A stretch of 64,000 bases of DNA from Alphaproteobacteria bacterium. Lineage in GTDB: Bacteria; Pseudomonadota; Alphaproteobacteria; MPNO01. The notes below the pieces were generated by a model, which worked only from the letters and a program-made list of their open reading frames with translations, searched no databases and was not told the origin of the DNA. The stretch is taken from assembly GCA_964291675.2 (NCBI GenBank), contig OZ219866.1:1920001-1984000 (forward strand), written 5' to 3'. A program made the translations under genes and the position numbers. Shown here piece by piece: positions 7,241 to 21,174 of this stretch; the first letter of the stretch is position 1, and the number at the start of each line of letters is the position of its first letter.

Positions 7241-7965
7241 CTTCGACAGGGGCTTACATGGATGGGTTGACGGGCGGTTGGCTGGCGCAGACTGCCGACG
7301 GGAACGCCGCCCCGCCTGCCCCCTCCCGTCATGCCGGGACTTGATCCACTGCTGTCCGGTTTAGATTTTCGACGCGGGCTCCGCGCCCGTGAGCATCTGC
7401 ATCTCCGCTCCCGCTGTTACCCCTACGTCATGGCCGGACTTGATCCGGCCATCCACGCGGCCTCTCCGCCCGCACGACGGTCCGACGAGAGGGGCGGCGG
7501 CGCCCATGGATGCCCGGATCAAGTCCACTGCTGTCCGGTTTAGCCTTCGACGCGCGTCGCGCCCGGCGTTTCCCGCCCCATCACCATGCCTCCCCCCATC
7601 GTCATGCCCGGCGCCCGGATCAAGTCCGGCCATGACGGGGTGGGGGTGGCGGTGGAGAAGCACGGGAGCCGGGTGCGGCCCGCCCCGCCCGTAGGTGCCC
7701 GGAACGAGGCCGGGGTGACAACGGAGGGGCAGGGACGGCAAGTGCGGGCGTGCGGCGATCCATGTCCCGATCCGGCGGATGCGTCGATATCCCGCCCGGA
7801 ACAAGGCTTTGCGCCCGGTCCAGCTCATATGAACCGGACAGCAGTGGACTTGATCCGGGCACCCACTGGCACCGCCGCCCCTCCCGGCCGAGCGCCGTGC
7901 GGGCGGAGGGGCTGCATGGGTGGCCGGATCACCCCCGGGCTTGATCCCGGGGCCCGCCATGACGG
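7241..7965. mobile_element. REP/MITE mosaic with terminal inverted repeats CCACTGCTGTCCGGTT ... AACCGGACAGCAGTGG
   Basis: Left-type ends at ~7346 and 7525, right end at 7832-7847, each abutting a REP core GGA(CTTGA/TCAAG)TCC; homologous blocks at 11890-12460 and 17613-18018. Confidence 0.8.
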
Positions 7966-11779: not shown

Positions 11780-11889
11780 CGCCGCCGCGTGCAGCCGGCG
11801 CTCGGTTCTTCCGTGCCGGCCCGCTTTCCTGGAGACACTTGGAAAGGAGACCCACCGATGCCGCGTAACGCATCCTCAACTACACAAGT

Positions 11890-12462
11890 CCACTGCTGTC
11901 CGGTTTAGATGCGCTGGATCGGGCGCAAAGCCTTGTTCCGGGCGGGATATCGGCGCATCCGCCGGATCGGGACACGGATCGCCGCACGCCTGCACTTGCC
12001 GTCCCTGCCCCTCCGTTGTCACCCCGGCCTCGTTCCGGGCACCCACGGCCGGGGCGGGCCGCACCCGGCTCCCGTACTCCTCCACCGCCACCCCCACCCC
12101 GTCATGGCCGGACTTGATCCGGCCACCCATGCGCGGACTTGATCCGCGCAACCACTGGCGCCGCCGCCCCTCTCGTCGGACCGTCGTGCGGGCGGAGGGG
12201 CTGCGTGGATGGCCGGATCACCCCCGGACTTGATCCGGGGGCCGGCCATGACGTAGGGGTAACAGCGGGAGCGGAGATGCAGATGCTCACGGGCGCGGAG
12301 CCCGCGTCGAAAATCTAACGGCCGCGGGCCGGGCACCGGACAGCAGTGGATCGAGTCCGGGCATGACGGAAGGGGGCCGGGCATGACGGGGTGGGGCGGG
12401 GCGGCGTTCCCGTCGGCGGTCTCCGCCAGTCGACCGCCCGTCAACCCATCCATATAAGCCCC
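11890..12462. mobile_element. Inverted copy of the REP/MITE mosaic
   Basis: TIRs at 11890 and ending at 12349; sequence is the reverse complement of blocks within 7241-7847. Confidence 0.8.
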
Positions 12463-15616: not shown

Positions 15617-15964
15617 ATGGAGATCTTCGCCAGGGACAGGAAGCTCGCCGCGGCCCTTGAGCATGAACACGTGTGCAAGCGGCGTTTCGGAGTAGCGATG
15701 TGCAACAAGCTCAGAGTTCGACTGGCAGCTCTCCGAGCGGCGGACTCCCTGGCGACGTTCTGGCCGCCGAACTCGAGACCCGAGCGTTGTCACGAGTTGA
15801 AGGGCGCTCGCGCGGGAACCTTTTCAATCGATCTACAGCAACCGTATCGGCTGTTGTTCAAGCCGATCGAAGAAGAACCGCCAAGAGACCGATCGAACGA
15901 GCAGGAACGCTGGTCGTCGATAACTGAACTGGAAATACTAGGGATTGAGGACACCCATGGCTAG
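15617..15964 (+). CDS. higB: HigB/RelE-like toxin
   Basis: RCHELKG.RAG.FSIDL.QPYRLLF motif; lies upstream of its antitoxin. Confidence 0.85.
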   Translation: MEIFARDRKLAAALEHEHVCKRRFGVAMCNKLRVRLAALRAADSLATFWPPNSRPERCHELKGARAGTFSIDLQQPYRLLFKPIEEEPPRDRSNEQERWSSITELEILGIEDTHG

Positions 15965-17081
15965 CAATGACCGTATTCCCATCGAACCGATGGCGACACC
16001 GCATCCTGGAGAGGTGATCGTCGAGTACCTTGCCTCCCATGGCTGGACCCAACGAGAGCTCGCCCGGCGTACCGGCCTTACACCCAAGACAATCAGCGTG
16101 ATCTGCCGCGCCAAGGCATCGGTCACTGCGACGACAGCCTTGTCGTTGGAGCGGGTCTTCCGGCGTCCGGCGCATTTGTGGCTAAACCTTCAAAGGCAAT
16201 TCGACGAGGCAGAGGCGCGGCAACGGGCGCTTGAAGACTCTGTTCGATGGAAGAATTGGGCGAGTACTTTTCCTCTCCGGGACATGAAAAGGCTCCGGTT
16301 CTCATTGCAGCCAGCCAGCTCCGATGTCGATACGCTGCTCAACTATCTGGGCGTCTCCTCCCCGGATAGTTGGGATGCGGTATGGCAAGACTGTGACATC
16401 GCCTACAGACAGACGCGGCACTTGACCGGGAGCATGGCGTCAATTTCTGCGTGGGTGCGCGAAACCGAGCTGTTGGCCGGGGAGATCCAGACGGAAAATT
16501 ACAACGAGACAGTTCTCCGCTCACTTGTCGAAGAGCTTCGACGGCTCACGACTGAGCGCGTGGACGAGGCTATGGGGGCGGTCCAGGAACTTTGTGCGAA
16601 AGCGGGCGTCGCCGTCGTCCGGGTGCCGCAATTGCCGAATTCGGGAATTAGCGGATGTGCCAGGTGGCTGAACGACACCAAGGCCCTTATCGGCCTTACG
16701 CATCGGTACGAAACCGACGACCAAATGTGGTTTTCCTTTTTCCACGAATTGGGGCACTTGCTGCTGCACAAGAGAATGCGTCCATTTGTTCTCGACAACG
16801 CCGTGGATGACCTGTTCGACAGAATTGTCGATCCAGAGATGGAGAAATTCGAAACGGAGGCCAACCAATTTGCCGCAGATACATTGATTCCTCCCGCAGC
16901 GCTGGACGAGTTCATAAGGCGGAAGACTTTTTCAAACGATGGCATTTGCGATTTTGCACGAACTATGGGTGTGTCTCCAGGAATTGTCGTAGGTCGACTT
17001 CAATATCTTGGACTGCTCGAAGCCTGCCAAGGCAATGCTCTCAAACAGAAACTTGCATGGCACATGGCTGAGGCCGAATGA
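15957..17081 (+). CDS. higA: HigA-type HTH antitoxin fused to an ImmA/IrrE Zn-metallopeptidase
   Basis: HPGE..., GWTQRELARR HTH, WLNLQ; FFHELGH and E.EAN.FA motifs. Confidence 0.9.
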   Translation: MASNDRIPIEPMATPHPGEVIVEYLASHGWTQRELARRTGLTPKTISVICRAKASVTATTALSLERVFRRPAHLWLNLQRQFDEAEARQRALEDSVRWKNWASTFPLRDMKRLRFSLQPASSDVDTLLNYLGVSSPDSWDAVWQDCDIAYRQTRHLTGSMASISAWVRETELLAGEIQTENYNETVLRSLVEELRRLTTERVDEAMGAVQELCAKAGVAVVRVPQLPNSGISGCARWLNDTKALIGLTHRYETDDQMWFSFFHELGHLLLHKRMRPFVLDNAVDDLFDRIVDPEMEKFETEANQFAADTLIPPAALDEFIRRKTFSNDGICDFARTMGVSPGIVVGRLQYLGLLEACQGNALKQKLAWHMAEAE

Positions 17082-17314: not shown

Positions 17315-18018
17315 GTATCGAAGGGGGCTTATGCCGAATACTTGACGGGCGGGTGGCCAACGACACTTCTTCCGTCATGCCCGGCCCCCGGATCGAGTCC
17401 GGGGGTGACGAGGGGGGTACATGACGAGGTGGGGCAGCATGGAAGCATGGGGAGCGTTCGGGCGCTCGGGCACGACGCCGGGGTTCGCCGGCGGGCACGC
17501 CGCAGATCGCGCCGCGCGGCCGCGCCGCTCCCCGTGACGCCCGGCCCCCGCTCCTTCTCCCCGTTACTCCACCGACTCCCCCGCTACTCCCCCCGTCATG
17601 CCCGGACTTGATCCACTGCTGTCCGGTTTAGCCTTCGACGCGCGTCGCGCCCGGCGTTTCCCGTCCCATCACCATGCCTCCCCCCATCGTCATGCCCGGA
17701 CTTGATCCGGGCATCCACTGGCGCCGCCGCTCCTCCCGACGGGGCGTTGTACCGGTGGCGCCAGTTGTTGCGCGGATCAAGTCCGCGCATGGGTGGCCGG
17801 ATCAAGTCCGGCCATGACGGGGTGGGGGTCGCGGTGCAGGAGTACGGGAGCCGGGTGCGGCCCGCCCCGGCCGTGGGTGCCCGGAACGAGGCCGGGGTGA
17901 CAACGGAGGGGCAGAGACGGCAAGTGCGGGCGTGCGGCGATCCGTGTCCCGATCCGGCGGATGCGCCGATATCCCGCCCGGAACAAGGCTTTGTGCCCAG
18001 TCCAGCTCACATAAACCG
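17315..18018. repeat. REP/MITE mosaic whose MITE right end is interrupted by IS110
   Basis: TIR at 17613; body matches 7525-7835; the terminus continues at 19925-19937. Confidence 0.85.
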
Positions 18019-18360
18019 TCATGGTCTCGGCGGTGCTGAGCCACCCCGTGGCATGAAACTCGGGGCGTTCGGCTGAGGGTTTGCCGATCGTCGCGCGGGT
18101 CTGCCGTGGCAGGATGGGAATGGTGGAGGCGGCGACGCGTGAGCGTTCCGTTTATCGGTGATGTGGTTCCCGAGATATAAACTGCTTCCGGCGGTCGGCT
18201 CCGCACCCCGTACTGTGCCCGGCCCGCGGCCGTGGACGCGCGGCAAATCGAACCGCACCCGCTCGACGGGTGCGTGTCCTTCCGACCGCTGTCCCCGCCT
18301 CCACCGTGGCGATGCCACGGCGCGATCCTACGCCGCCGTGGCGAGAGCGCAACGAGGAGG
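18019..18360 (+). ncRNA. Candidate bridge RNA region (non-coding left end of IS110)
   Basis: ~350-bp hairpin-rich leader upstream of the recombinase, the position of bridge RNAs in IS110-group elements; RNA boundaries not determined. Confidence 0.55.
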
Positions 18361-18366
18361 ACAGCG

Positions 18367-19617
18367 ATGAAGACGGAAGGCTTGCACGTCGTGCGGCCGC
18401 GCGCGGCGGGTCTGGACGTGCACAAGATGGAGATCACCGCGACGGTTCGCCTGTGCGAGGGCGAGGGCGAGCCGGTGGTGGAGACGCGCTGCTTCAGCTC
18501 GCTTCCGAGCGGTCTGGCGGAGATGGTCGCCTGGCTGACCGGTCGCCGCGTCGAGGCCGCTGTCATGGAAGGGACCGGGATCTACTGGCAGGCGCCCTTC
18601 GCGGCGGTGGAGGCGGCGGGGATCGAAGCGATCCTGGTGCACGCGCGTCAGGTCAAGCAGTTGAAGGGGCGCAAGACCGATGTCGCCGACAGCGTGTGGC
18701 TGGCCTGCGTGTGCCAGTTCGGGCTCTGCACGCCTTCCCATGTTCCCCCCGAGCCGTTCCGGGAGCTGCGCTCGCTGAGCCGCCAGCGGCGTACCCTGGT
18801 CAGGCAGCGCTCGACCGTGCGCAACCGGGTGCAGAAGATCGTCGACCGCGCCGGCCTGCGCATCGGCGGCATCCTCTCCGACGTCTTCGGCGTCAACGGC
18901 CGCAAGATCCTCGACGGGCTGGCGCAAGCCACGCCGCGCGCGGTCATCCTCGCCTCGCTCACCGGCCACGTCGCCAACAAGCTGGAGGGGCTCGGCGAGG
19001 CGCTCTCCCTGAGCCTGGGCGACAACGACCGCTTCATGCTCGGCGATCTGCTGGACGAGCATGACGCGCTCGAGGCGCGCATCGCGTCCTACGGCGAGAA
19101 GATCGACCGGCAGATGACGCCGTGGCAGGAACAGCTCCGCCTGCTGACCACCATCCCCGGCATCGACCGCATCGCCGCCTCGACCATCCTGATCGAGATC
19201 GGCCCGGATATCGAGGCGTTCGCCTCCAAGCAGCACTTCGCCGCCTGGGCCGGGCTCTGCCCCGGCAACAACGAAAGCGGCGGAAAGCGCCGCAACGCGC
19301 GCACCCGAAGGGGCTCCAAGACGCTGCGCGCCAGCCTCGTCGAATGTGCCCACGGCGCGGCCCGAACCAAGGGGTGCCAGTTCGAGGCCCACCACCGCGC
19401 GCTCGCCGCCCGGCGCGGATACAAGCGCGCCATCGTGGCCAGCGCACACAAGATGCTGCGCATCGTTTATGTCGTGCTCAAGACCGGCAGGCCCTACTAC
19501 GACCGCACCGCCGACTACGACGCGCTGATGGTCAAGCGCAACGCCCCGCGCTGGATCCGAATGCTCCGCCGCTACGGCTACATCCAACCCCGGCGCGCCG
19601 AACCCAAGGCCACCTGA
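18367..19617 (+). CDS. IS110-family DEDD recombinase/transposase
   Basis: GLDVHK, MEGTG, KTDVADS, TIPGI, ESGG serine motif; RBS GAGGAGG. Confidence 0.97.
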   Translation: MKTEGLHVVRPRAAGLDVHKMEITATVRLCEGEGEPVVETRCFSSLPSGLAEMVAWLTGRRVEAAVMEGTGIYWQAPFAAVEAAGIEAILVHARQVKQLKGRKTDVADSVWLACVCQFGLCTPSHVPPEPFRELRSLSRQRRTLVRQRSTVRNRVQKIVDRAGLRIGGILSDVFGVNGRKILDGLAQATPRAVILASLTGHVANKLEGLGEALSLSLGDNDRFMLGDLLDEHDALEARIASYGEKIDRQMTPWQEQLRLLTTIPGIDRIAASTILIEIGPDIEAFASKQHFAAWAGLCPGNNESGGKRRNARTRRGSKTLRASLVECAHGAARTKGCQFEAHHRALAARRGYKRAIVASAHKMLRIVYVVLKTGRPYYDRTADYDALMVKRNAPRWIRMLRRYGYIQPRRAEPKAT

Positions 19618-19628
19618 CCGGCCCGCAT

Positions 19629-19924
19629 AACGCCGGACCGCCGCGCGGGACCGCTTCGGGCCACATCGGGGAAGTCCACCGCTCGTCTCGCCGCCCCCTT
19701 CCGGCGATCTCAGCCAACTCCCTCCCGGCGTTGGATGGGGCCCTCGCGCGCCCCCACCGAAACTGTTTCACGGCAACGCCGGACCGCCGCGCGGGACCGC
19801 TTCGGGCCACATCGGGGAAGTCCACCGCTCGTCTCCGCCGCCCCCTTCCGGCGATCTCAGCCAACTCCCTCCCGGCGTTGGATGGGGCCCTCGCGCGCCC
19901 CCACCGAAACTGTTTCACGGCAAC
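19629..19924 (+). repeat. Tandem duplication of the IS110 right end (~146 bp, two copies)
   Basis: Copies start at 19629 and 19775 and differ by one C. Confidence 0.95.
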
Positions 19925-19998
19925 CGGACAGCAGTGGATCGAGTCCGGCCATGACGAGTGGGGGTGCCGGCGGTGAGTTCGCGGCGGCCCGCGCGCCC

Positions 19999-21174
19999 CT
20001 ACAGCAGCGCGTTGTTCGGCGCGAGCCCGGCGGCGATGCGGCCGAACTCGGCGCCGTTGATGTCCCAGGAGAGGTGGATCTGGTGCGCCGCGGCGTGGAT
20101 GTCGCGGTGCTGGCGCTGGAGGTCGCTGGCGAGATAGTTGGCCCTGGCCCCGCAGGCGCCGTGGATCAGGTCGACCGCCTGGACGCAGCAGCGCGCGGCC
20201 CAGGCGCCGTTGCGCCGCCAGCGCGCGCGGTCGATCAGCGGCAGCCGCTCGCGCCCGGCGATCAGCGCCTCGGCCTCCAGGCAGTCCTCGCGCACCAGCA
20301 GGCGCGCGATTTCGACGAGCTGCGCCGCCTCGGCGAGCTTGAGCTGGATCGTCACGTGCTCGGCGACGCGCGAGCGGTTGTAGGTCGAGACCTGCTCCCT
20401 GAGATGGGCGGCGTAGTCGTCATACGCGGCCCGGGCGGCGCCGATCATCGGGGCGGCGACCAGATGCGGGATCAGCGGCAGCAGCGGCAGGCGGTAGGCG
20501 TCGCTCATCCCCTCGGTCTCGGGCGGGTAGCCCTCCCGCGACGGCGCCATGTCGAGCACCATGTGGGCCGGCAGGAACAGATCCTCGCAGGCCACGTCCT
20601 TCGAGCCGGTGCCGACCAGGCCGGAGACCTGCCAGGTGTCGATGATCTCGATGTCGGCGGCGCGCACCAGCACGATGCGCGGGCCGGGCGCGTCGTCCTC
20701 CGGGCCCTGGCCGATCGCGCCCAGCATCATCCAGTCGCTCGAATCCACCCCGCTCGCATAGGGCCAGCGCCCGGTCAGCCGATACCCGCCCTCCGCCGGG
20801 GCGAGCCTGCCGGCGGGGAACACCAGGGTCGAGCCGATCAGCGCGTCGGGGTCCTCGCCCCAGATGTCCTCGGCCGCCCCGGCCGGCCAGTAGGGCAGCA
20901 TCCAGTTATGCGCGACCAGGTTGATATAGACCCAGGAGGTGGCGGCGCAGCCGCGCCCGAGCTCGATGGTCACGTCGATCATCAGCCGGTAATCGGTCTC
21001 CACCCCGCCATAGCGCGCGGGCTTCAAGATGTTCCACAGCCCGGCCGCGCGCAAATCCGCGATCGTCTCGTCGGGGATGCGGCGGATGCGCTCGGCCTCG
21101 GGCGCGCGCTCGCGCAGCACCGGGATCAGGCCGCGCGCGGCGTCGAGGATTTGCTCGCGGGTGGGGTGTGTCAT
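19999..21174 (-). CDS. Flavin-dependent monooxygenase, acyl-CoA dehydrogenase fold (HsaA/HpaB-like)
   Basis: GRW.YASG.D, W...GL.GTGS.D, LQRQHRD.H motifs. Confidence 0.88.
   Translation of the reverse strand: MTHPTREQILDAARGLIPVLRERAPEAERIRRIPDETIADLRAAGLWNILKPARYGGVETDYRLMIDVTIELGRGCAATSWVYINLVAHNWMLPYWPAGAAEDIWGEDPDALIGSTLVFPAGRLAPAEGGYRLTGRWPYASGVDSSDWMMLGAIGQGPEDDAPGPRIVLVRAADIEIIDTWQVSGLVGTGSKDVACEDLFLPAHMVLDMAPSREGYPPETEGMSDAYRLPLLPLIPHLVAAPMIGAARAAYDDYAAHLREQVSTYNRSRVAEHVTIQLKLAEAAQLVEIARLLVREDCLEAEALIAGRERLPLIDRARWRRNGAWAARCCVQAVDLIHGACGARANYLASDLQRQHRDIHAAAHQIHLSWDINGAEFGRIAAGLAPNNALL

Follow-up and report, generated by a model that had tools for sequence, protein, structure and literature searches.

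The choice of target by an element-encoded RNA is established for the IS110 and IS1111 groups of insertion sequences (ISs), and the natural targets include repeated extragenic elements (REPs) for IS621, ISPpu9/10 and ISPa11, attC sites, and IS3-family transposase genes for ISEc21 (PMC11208160, PMC11187229, PMC12288879). The subject of this report is an IS110-family IS at positions 18016 to 19923 (forward strand) of a 64,000-nucleotide stretch, hereafter the window, from an Alphaproteobacteria bacterium (GenBank assembly GCA_964291675.2, contig OZ219866.1, positions 1,920,001 to 1,984,000). [quoted passage not shown] The mechanism is already known; the MITE-end target is a new example of it, with an anatomy that is partly unusual for an element with an upstream RNA. 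A full-text literature search pairing IS110 with MITE, in a limited collection, returned no description of an IS110 element that targets the end of a MITE, and this branch of the family and its guide order may already figure in the ISfinder-wide bridge-RNA predictions or covariation tables in the supplements of PMC11208160.

IS621, an IS110-family element of Escherichia coli, and the element in the window are alike in encoding a DEDD plus Ser recombinase, in carrying in the left end, upstream of the gene, a non-coding RNA (here a candidate), and in the arrangement of that RNA, with two loops bearing target and donor guides, left guides in the sense of the top strand, and a core that lies within the pairing; IS621 likewise inserts into a repeated extragenic element, a REP (PMC11208160, PMC11208158). 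The two differ in the length of the recombinase chain (328 amino acids in IS621, 416 here), in the core (CT in IS621, an A-run here), in the position of the strong left-target guide, which lies 5' of the loop's hairpin in IS621 and 3' of it here, and in the overall layout of the RNA, with two successive stem-loops in IS621 and loops nested within one long outer stem here. The 6-nucleotide subterminal inverted repeat and the MITE-end target also set the present element apart. ISEc21, which has an IS110-type seekRNA, similarly carries its guide RNA in the upstream non-coding region, and its natural target also lies inside another mobile element, in a conserved stretch of IS3-family transposase genes (PMC11187229); unlike a MITE end, this target is the coding sequence of an autonomous IS, the ISEc21 transposase has 358 amino acids, and its strand-matching segments stand in the IS110-type order, which appears reversed here. 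In ISMch6, a relative of ISEc21, natural retargeting has occurred by few base changes (PMC11187229).

ISPpu9 and ISPpu10 of Pseudomonas putida also belong to the IS110 family and are present as multiple identical copies in REPs, and ISPpu9 has several circular forms and a separable right-hand module, MITEPpu9 (PMC12288879), a modular behaviour that resembles the duplicated right-end module in the window. Their target and core dinucleotide (AG) differ from those found here, and no ssr9-like small-RNA module was seen in the present element. IS4321 and IS5075, of the IS1111 group, reportedly occupy a fixed position in terminal inverted repeats that belong to Tn21-family transposons, a case associated with Partridge and Hall (2003). 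They resemble the element in the window as site-specific DEDD elements with subterminal inverted repeats at a fixed terminal-repeat position of another transposon, but their target is a large Tn3-family transposon and not a MITE. The non-coding region of IS1111-group elements lies downstream of the gene (PMC11187229), whereas it lies upstream here.

The element and its insertion site

The transposase or recombinase gene (18367 to 19617, forward strand) is an intact open reading frame (ORF) of 416 amino acids, preceded by about 350 nucleotides of non-coding sequence and followed by about 300 nucleotides in which the tandem duplication described below is found. By its protein sequence the element is a member of the IS110 family, as the initial annotation of the window had proposed: it contains both Pfam domains, PF01548 (DEDD_Tnp_IS110, RuvC-like; residues 14-161, 79.9 bits, E 2.3e-22) and PF02371 (Transposase_20; residues 258-342, 82.2 bits, E 3.6e-23), and has distant similarity to the solved transposases of ISCro4 (E 1e-14) and IS621 (E 2e-14, over the C-terminal domain). 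The motifs GLDVHK, MEGTG, KTDVADS and NNESGGK are kept in the window protein and in six of seven aligned homologs, the seventh (L067) having RT in place of ES; by homology to the IS621 residues named in PMC11208158, these four motifs would comprise the catalytic D/E/D/D and Ser, and the element looks active.

Eight full copies, 100% identical over 1.76 kb, are present in the source genome (4.81 Mb in two contigs), and all eight are inserted at one site and in one orientation relative to the MITE end, with identical junctions; none lies at an unrelated site, a possibility that the initial annotation had raised. The left flank common to the eight copies is ...GGTCCAGCTCA[T/C][A/C]TAAAC|CGTCATGG and the right flank TTTCACGGCAA(A)C|CGGACAGCAGTGGA, and on this evidence the target and circle-junction sequences reconstructed earlier from the single copy are correct. 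In the window copy the left junction reads ...CTCACATAAAC|CGTCATGG, with ACATAAAC at 18009-18016, and the right junction ...TTTCACGGCAAC|CGGACAGCAGTGG, with GGC at 19919-19921 and AA at 19922-19923. As is usual in IS110, there are no terminal inverted repeats and no target duplication beyond the A-run common to both junctions. The cognate target is End B of the MITE, ...CTCATATAAA|CCGGACAGCAGTGG. The interrupted MITE unit spans 17613 to 19937 (forward strand): its left part (17613 to 18015) begins with the End A terminal inverted repeat (TIR) CCACTGCTGTCCGGTTTAG (17613-17631) and has at its right edge the left target, ...CTCACAT followed by the A-run (18013-18015), and its right part (19924 to 19937) is the last 14 nucleotides of End B, CCGGACAGCAGTGG, which form the right half of the target.

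Homologous elements were collected from 79 loci on genome contigs and 15 loci in metagenomes, with 57-99% protein identity. The junctions of all loci fetched take the form ...AAAC-NN(N)-CATGG on the left and ...GCAA(A)-N... on the right, and the A-run, which comprises two to four A and differs in length among copies of one element, is the sole sequence common to both junctions; the crossover core therefore lies within the A-run, and the element ends are accordingly given to within 2 nucleotides. The initial annotation had taken AACCG as the string shared by the junctions. Its A-run part holds as the core, whereas the CCG part does not survive comparison with the homologs, being a coincidence that arises from the left end (C-CGT-CATGG) and the right half of the target (CCGGAC) starting alike, so that the true boundaries fall within 1-3 nucleotides of those first assigned.

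A candidate bridge RNA and its guides

A comparative fold places a structured non-coding RNA region, a candidate bridge RNA of about 190 nucleotides, at approximately 18119 to 18308 on the forward strand, to which all of the following features also belong. An outer stem (18124-18133/18294-18303) encloses the whole structure. Helix P2 (18141-18145/18183-18187), which shows compensatory changes, closes a first, target-binding loop that contains the P3 hairpin (18156-18172) and, as its 3' strand, AGATATAAAC (18173-18182). Helix 4 (18189-18198/18282-18291) encloses the hairpins of helix 5 (18214-18238) and helix 6 (18254-18274), and the strand CGCGGCAAATCGAAC (18239-18253) lies between these two hairpins. 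The alignment comprised 33 distinct left-end segments matching window positions 18119-18308, for which RNAalifold predicted nested helices with compensatory changes in 20 of 40 pairs. A curated structure of 46 pairs, obtained by removing a 2-bp helix over the donor guide and adding the hairpin at 18254-18274, has 95.5% of its cells paired, compared with 39-50% when partners are slid by one to three columns; changes on both sides occur in 23 pairs, and on four of five measures none of 500 shuffles reaches the observed value. The window sequence alone folds with a z-score of -3.5. Six helices of the candidate RNA are thus supported by covariation in the alignment. An Rfam scan of 17500-20100 at E<=1 found no bridge-RNA family and returned two chance-level matches (Prion_pknot and H19_2). 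A truncated homolog, L048, keeps the donor-loop half of the RNA and has unrelated sequence in place of the target-loop half and the left terminus.

The sequence features listed in the initial annotation are all present, namely ATATAAAC at 18175-18182, CGGCAAA at 18241-18247 and GTTTAT at 18150-18155. The first of these had been put forward as the target guide, and the comparison with homologs bears this out: it lies in the covariation-supported internal loop, within the 3' strand of what is here called the target-binding loop, and its sense is that of the left flank and the core; across 19 guide types the corresponding segment tracks the left flank. The left-target guide in the IS621 model likewise reads in the sense of the left flank (PMC11208160). 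In 17 of the 19 types the guide equals its own left flank contiguously for 7-9 nucleotides, the other two matching over 5 and 6. At the five variable guide positions, 3.63 of 5 are identical in cognate pairs and 1.30 of 5 in non-cognate pairs, and none of 20,000 permutations is as good; covariation of this kind between left-end RNA and target had been named beforehand as a check on the proposal. Single families follow the same rule, as in L089, where AATC replaces AAAC in guide and flank alike, and in L103, where guide and flank are identical over 11 nucleotides. A sister element in another genome (99% protein identity) has the guide ATCTAAAC, in which the variable part is ATCT where the window element has ATAT, and two of its three copies are inserted in MITE ends that read ATCTAAAC.

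The left-donor guide, CGGCAAA (18241 to 18247), runs in the sense of the element's right end, ...CACGGCAA(A), and matches the right end ...CACGGCAAA. The assignment of CGGCAA(A) to the left donor side was correct, in that the guide changes exactly where the right end changes: in the L060/64/65 and L075/81 families, whose right end is ...CAGCAAA, the guide too is CAGCAAA.

The 5' strand of the target-binding loop, between P2 and P3, is occupied by TTCCGTTTAT (18146 to 18155), here called region A, which is probably the right-target guide. [quoted passage not shown] With the A-run left out of the comparison, the best runs average 3.38 nucleotides in cognate and 2.78 in non-cognate pairs, and 54 of 20,000 permutations are as good. 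The segment TGCTT after the guide, of which the reverse complement resembles target AGCAG, was rejected as a right-target guide: it is the 3' strand of the compensatory helix P2 and stays the same in homologs whose right flanks are unrelated. Handshake pairing of the IS621 type (PMC11208158) was not supported, as the donor GC finds no match in AT, AA or AC, the dinucleotides that follow region A.

The guides are ordered with the segment that would pair with the top strand 5' and the segment that would pair with the bottom strand 3', the reverse of IS621. A reversed order between IS1111-type and IS110-type seekRNAs has been reported (PMC11187229), and from the 'reverse order' passage of that paper, not from a comparison with IS1111 sequences, we infer that the order here is that of IS1111. 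Guides and structured RNA lie upstream of the transposase gene, not downstream as in IS1111, and for this reason the element is not filed as IS1111-type; its architecture may mix IS110 traits (the upstream RNA) with IS1111 traits (the segment order and the subterminal inverted repeats).

From these features a mechanism can be proposed along the lines published for IS621 and ISEc21. The left-end RNA would be transcribed, adopt a nested fold in which two loops carry guides, and be bound by the recombinase. In the target-binding loop, region A (TTCCGTTTAT) would probably pair, more weakly than the left guide, with the top strand over the core and the target's right half, and in the donor loop CGGCAAA would pair with the element's own right end in an excised circle, the predicted junction of right end and left end (RE-LE) being ...CACGGCAA(A)CCGTCATGG. 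The DEDD/Ser recombinase would then exchange strands within the A-run, guided strand exchange proceeding by way of the circular intermediate.

Occupancy of potential sites

If the guide selects the site, the fit between guide and left flank should bear on which MITE ends are occupied. The genome contains 115 sites with either the right half CGGACAGCAGTGG (<=1 mismatch) or the element left end, and these were grouped by the preceding octamer. Occupancy falls with the number of mismatches to ATATAAAC, from five of five sites without a mismatch, to three of 28 with one, to none of 82 with two or more (Fisher tests: perfect matches versus the rest, 3.6e-7; one versus at least two mismatches, 0.015). 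The sites with one mismatch are listed as 2/7 for ACATAAAC, 1/16 for ATCTAAAC and 0/5 for others, and together they comprise three occupied and 25 empty sites. The 82 empty sites with at least two mismatches include eight right junctions of the element itself and 30 End A sites (GGCTAAAC); End A has received no insertion although its right half is identical to that of End B. In the whole genome ATATAAAC occurs 16 times, eight times as the guide, five times in occupied MITE ends and three times elsewhere.

Alternative explanations and points against RNA-guided insertion

A number of observations weigh against RNA-guided site choice as set out here. The sister genome contains seven empty ATCTAAAC ends that match its guide perfectly, so that occupancy does not follow from a perfect left match alone. 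Region A, the probable right-target guide, has moderate support and is a weaker case than the left guide, and in a sister family with the guide GACAAAAC, for which 33 distinct sites were mapped, the left side gives the logo (G)ACAAAA and the right side carries no information. A right-donor guide was not found when single-stranded RNA segments were compared by eye across homologs with the start of the left end: C-NN(N)-CATGG and its reverse complement, set against J4/5 CUCCGCACCCCGUAC, the bases after CGGCAAA and J6/4 UGUCCUU, gave no consistent complementarity or covariation. As to expression, a sigma-70 promoter scan of 17900-20000 returned no site, and no convincing junction promoter was seen by eye across RE-LE. 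Metatranscriptome contigs from three runs, from relatives 85-95% alike, cover left end and ORF alike, but may derive from DNA and contain no transcript ends. Their summed depth is higher over 18180-18319 in two of the three runs; since contig depth cannot rank the parts of a gene and DNA may be present, this cover is not counted as evidence of expression, and the transcription proposed for the RNA follows the published IS621/ISEc21 mechanism. Finally, all MITE ends that read ATATAAAC are occupied and none is empty, which could partly reflect co-conversion between IS-bearing MITE copies.

This last observation leads to the alternative that survives best, improbable as it is, namely that a single MITE::IS composite was spread, either by homologous recombination or gene conversion through the MITE arms or by mobilisation through the transposase of the MITE. 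All five ATATAAAC ends carry the IS, as if the variant travelled with it, and the flanks are long homologous repeats. However, in a tree of 36 End-B copies the eight occupied copies are scattered among empty ones, and they differ from one another in having three left-flank octamers, private single-nucleotide polymorphisms in the flanks and two right-junction A-run lengths; scatter and differences together favour independent insertions over the copying of one composite. Moreover, the agreement of guide with flank extends to 19 guide types from other genomes, where many of the sites are not repeats, and the sister copy L011 lies outside any MITE, at GGCTAAA|GGAGAAC.

It is very unlikely that the copy is a dead relic in which RNA or recombinase no longer works, so that the pattern would be historical only. 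Such a view could appeal to the lack of expression evidence from the source organism and to the aberrant right-end duplication of the window copy, but the eight copies are 100% identical over 1.76 kb with an intact ORF, the catalytic motifs are kept, and the duplication junctions, described below, look like recent recombinase products. Least credible of all is the notion that protein or DNA structure picks the site (for example AAAC beside a REP or MITE hairpin) and that ATATAAAC is a mere hairpin half with GTTTAT, for although GUUUAU and AUAAAC are paired when the single sequence is folded to minimum free energy, as a caveat in the initial annotation had anticipated, and although guides and flanks all have AAAC with almost no variation, that caveat falls because the comparative fold leaves both segments single-stranded, as the two strands of one loop closed by the compensatory helix P2, while the sister element alters each of them (ATCT; CCTTTT) without keeping complementarity and covariation with the flank is seen at the four to five positions 5' of AAA. 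RNA-guided choice of the site by the left end of the element is retained as the preferred explanation.

Subterminal repeats and right-end duplications

A left subterminal inverted repeat, TGAAAC (18054 to 18059, forward strand), has its partner GTTTCA at 19912-19917 and again, in the duplicated unit, at 19765-19770. Across homologs the repeat takes the form TGAAAN/N'TTTCA, in which the variable position is complementary in all 25 distinct ends (C:G in 11, T:A in 11 and G:C in three). At only 6-7 bp and with an asymmetric placement, it is a feature of the kind that characterises the IS1111 subgroup. A further motif, CACCCCGT, occurs twice, once near the left terminus just before the subterminal repeat (CCACCCCGTGG, 18040-18050) and once in the RNA segment J4/5 (GCACCCCGTAC, 18205-18212), and CCCCG is found at both places in all homologs.

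The window copy is 147 bp longer than the other seven. Its right end carries a tandem duplication of 147 bp (19629 to 19922, forward strand; Tandem Repeats Finder, 2.0 copies, 99% identical) that is confined to this copy, as the other seven align to the window query only as far as position 1760-1771 and hence are without the duplication. At the duplication junction, CACGGC-AA-CGCCGGACC, the right end is joined to an internal site that has GCCCGCAT-AA (19620-19630) as its natural left neighbour; this internal site, GCCCGCAT-AA-CGCCGGACC, resembles the real target CACAT-AA-(A)CCGGAC. Another copy (C1:1046197-1047955, reverse strand) has a 15-bp duplication (ACTGTTTCACGGCAA) that joins GGCAA to an internal ...CCGAA|ACTGTTTC (...CGAA|ACTG). 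Both duplications look like products of the recombinase at pseudo-targets with an AA core, and they recall the multiple circular forms of ISPpu9 (PMC12288879). In the sister element with the guide GACAAAAC, of which one metagenome-assembled genome has about 40 copies, a head-to-tail tandem occurs (L028, L033 and L034, with partners L023, L029, L037 and L076) in which the right end abuts the left end directly (TTTCACGGCAAACAGTCATGG), displaying the donor or circle-junction sequence in the chromosome.

The MITE and REP layers

The 16-nucleotide TIR motif AACCGGACAGCAGTGG has 105 occurrences in the genome at <=2 mismatches (68 of them exact), typically as inverted pairs about 417 bp apart, and the MITE unit is about 417 bp long. 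End A reads ...GAAGGCTAAACCGGACAGCAGTGG and End B ...CAGCTCATNNAAACCGGACAGCAGTGG, with about 36 copies of End B. The unit has the properties of a MITE, being short, non-coding, multi-copy and bounded by TIRs, with a target-site duplication. Direct repeats of GGA-N5-TCC (>=10/11 identity) flank 13 of 24 complete units. This sequence forms the middle of a palindromic REP, ATGSCCGGA-N5-TCCGGSCAT, and the genome has 114 intact copies of that REP; the duplicated REP centre implies that the MITE inserts in REP hairpin loops. The TIRs, the End B copies and these site repeats together substantiate the layering first suggested from the window, of an IS on a MITE that itself sits in REPs. The three MITE-end variants noted in the window are also all real, with ATATGAAC near 7827-7834 (forward strand), ATCTAAAC at the site 11889-11916 (reverse strand) and ACATAAAC at 18009-18016.

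An autonomous parent of the MITE was not found, two TIR-bounded stretches of 1.5-1.9 kb (L104 and L105) being without a transposase-like ORF by eye, with no Pfam scan made. MITE-related units also form head-to-tail arrays with a spacing of 330 bp (C1:545887-546962 and similar; window 7361-7847), and at least one shorter relative (about 333 bp, with the end ...AAAATCTAAACCGG) has the same terminal repeat. Just upstream of the repeat cluster, a 378-amino-acid ORF (15945-17081, forward strand) has an HTH-like N-terminus and, further on, an HELGH motif; in the ORF listing these features hint at a fusion of an XRE-type regulator with a metallopeptidase-like domain.

The three positions of End B that lie just 5' of AAAC and correspond to the variable part of the left-target guide, -20 to -18 when counted from the end of the MITE and 18010-18012 in the window, are multi-allelic among 27 copies, with an entropy of 0.9-1.0, and the equivalent positions of End A are invariant among 21 copies. 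The variability of End B could reflect escape from targeting or could reflect MITE subfamilies. It is conceivable, if doubtful, that the three layers co-evolve, the MITE mutating the three to four bases that the guide reads so as to escape and the IS following by single-base changes of its guide; such a course would fit the multi-allelic End B as against the invariant End A, the ATAT and ATCT guides of the two sisters, and the occupation of all perfect-match ends.

Implications

The locus provides a worked case of nested selfish elements, in which REP, MITE and IS110 follow one upon the other, and it leaves knowledge of the mechanism unchanged. For the long-transposase (416 amino acids) branch of IS110 it documents the layout of the guide RNA, in which the main specificity resides in a left guide of 7-8 nucleotides beside an A-run core and recognition of the right flank is weak or absent, a layout that could inform off-target rules for engineered bridge recombinases. 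Within one genome it also provides a dose-response between guide mismatches and site occupancy, and between sister genomes an instance of natural bridge-RNA programming, where a single-base difference in the guide matches the target variant that each element occupies.

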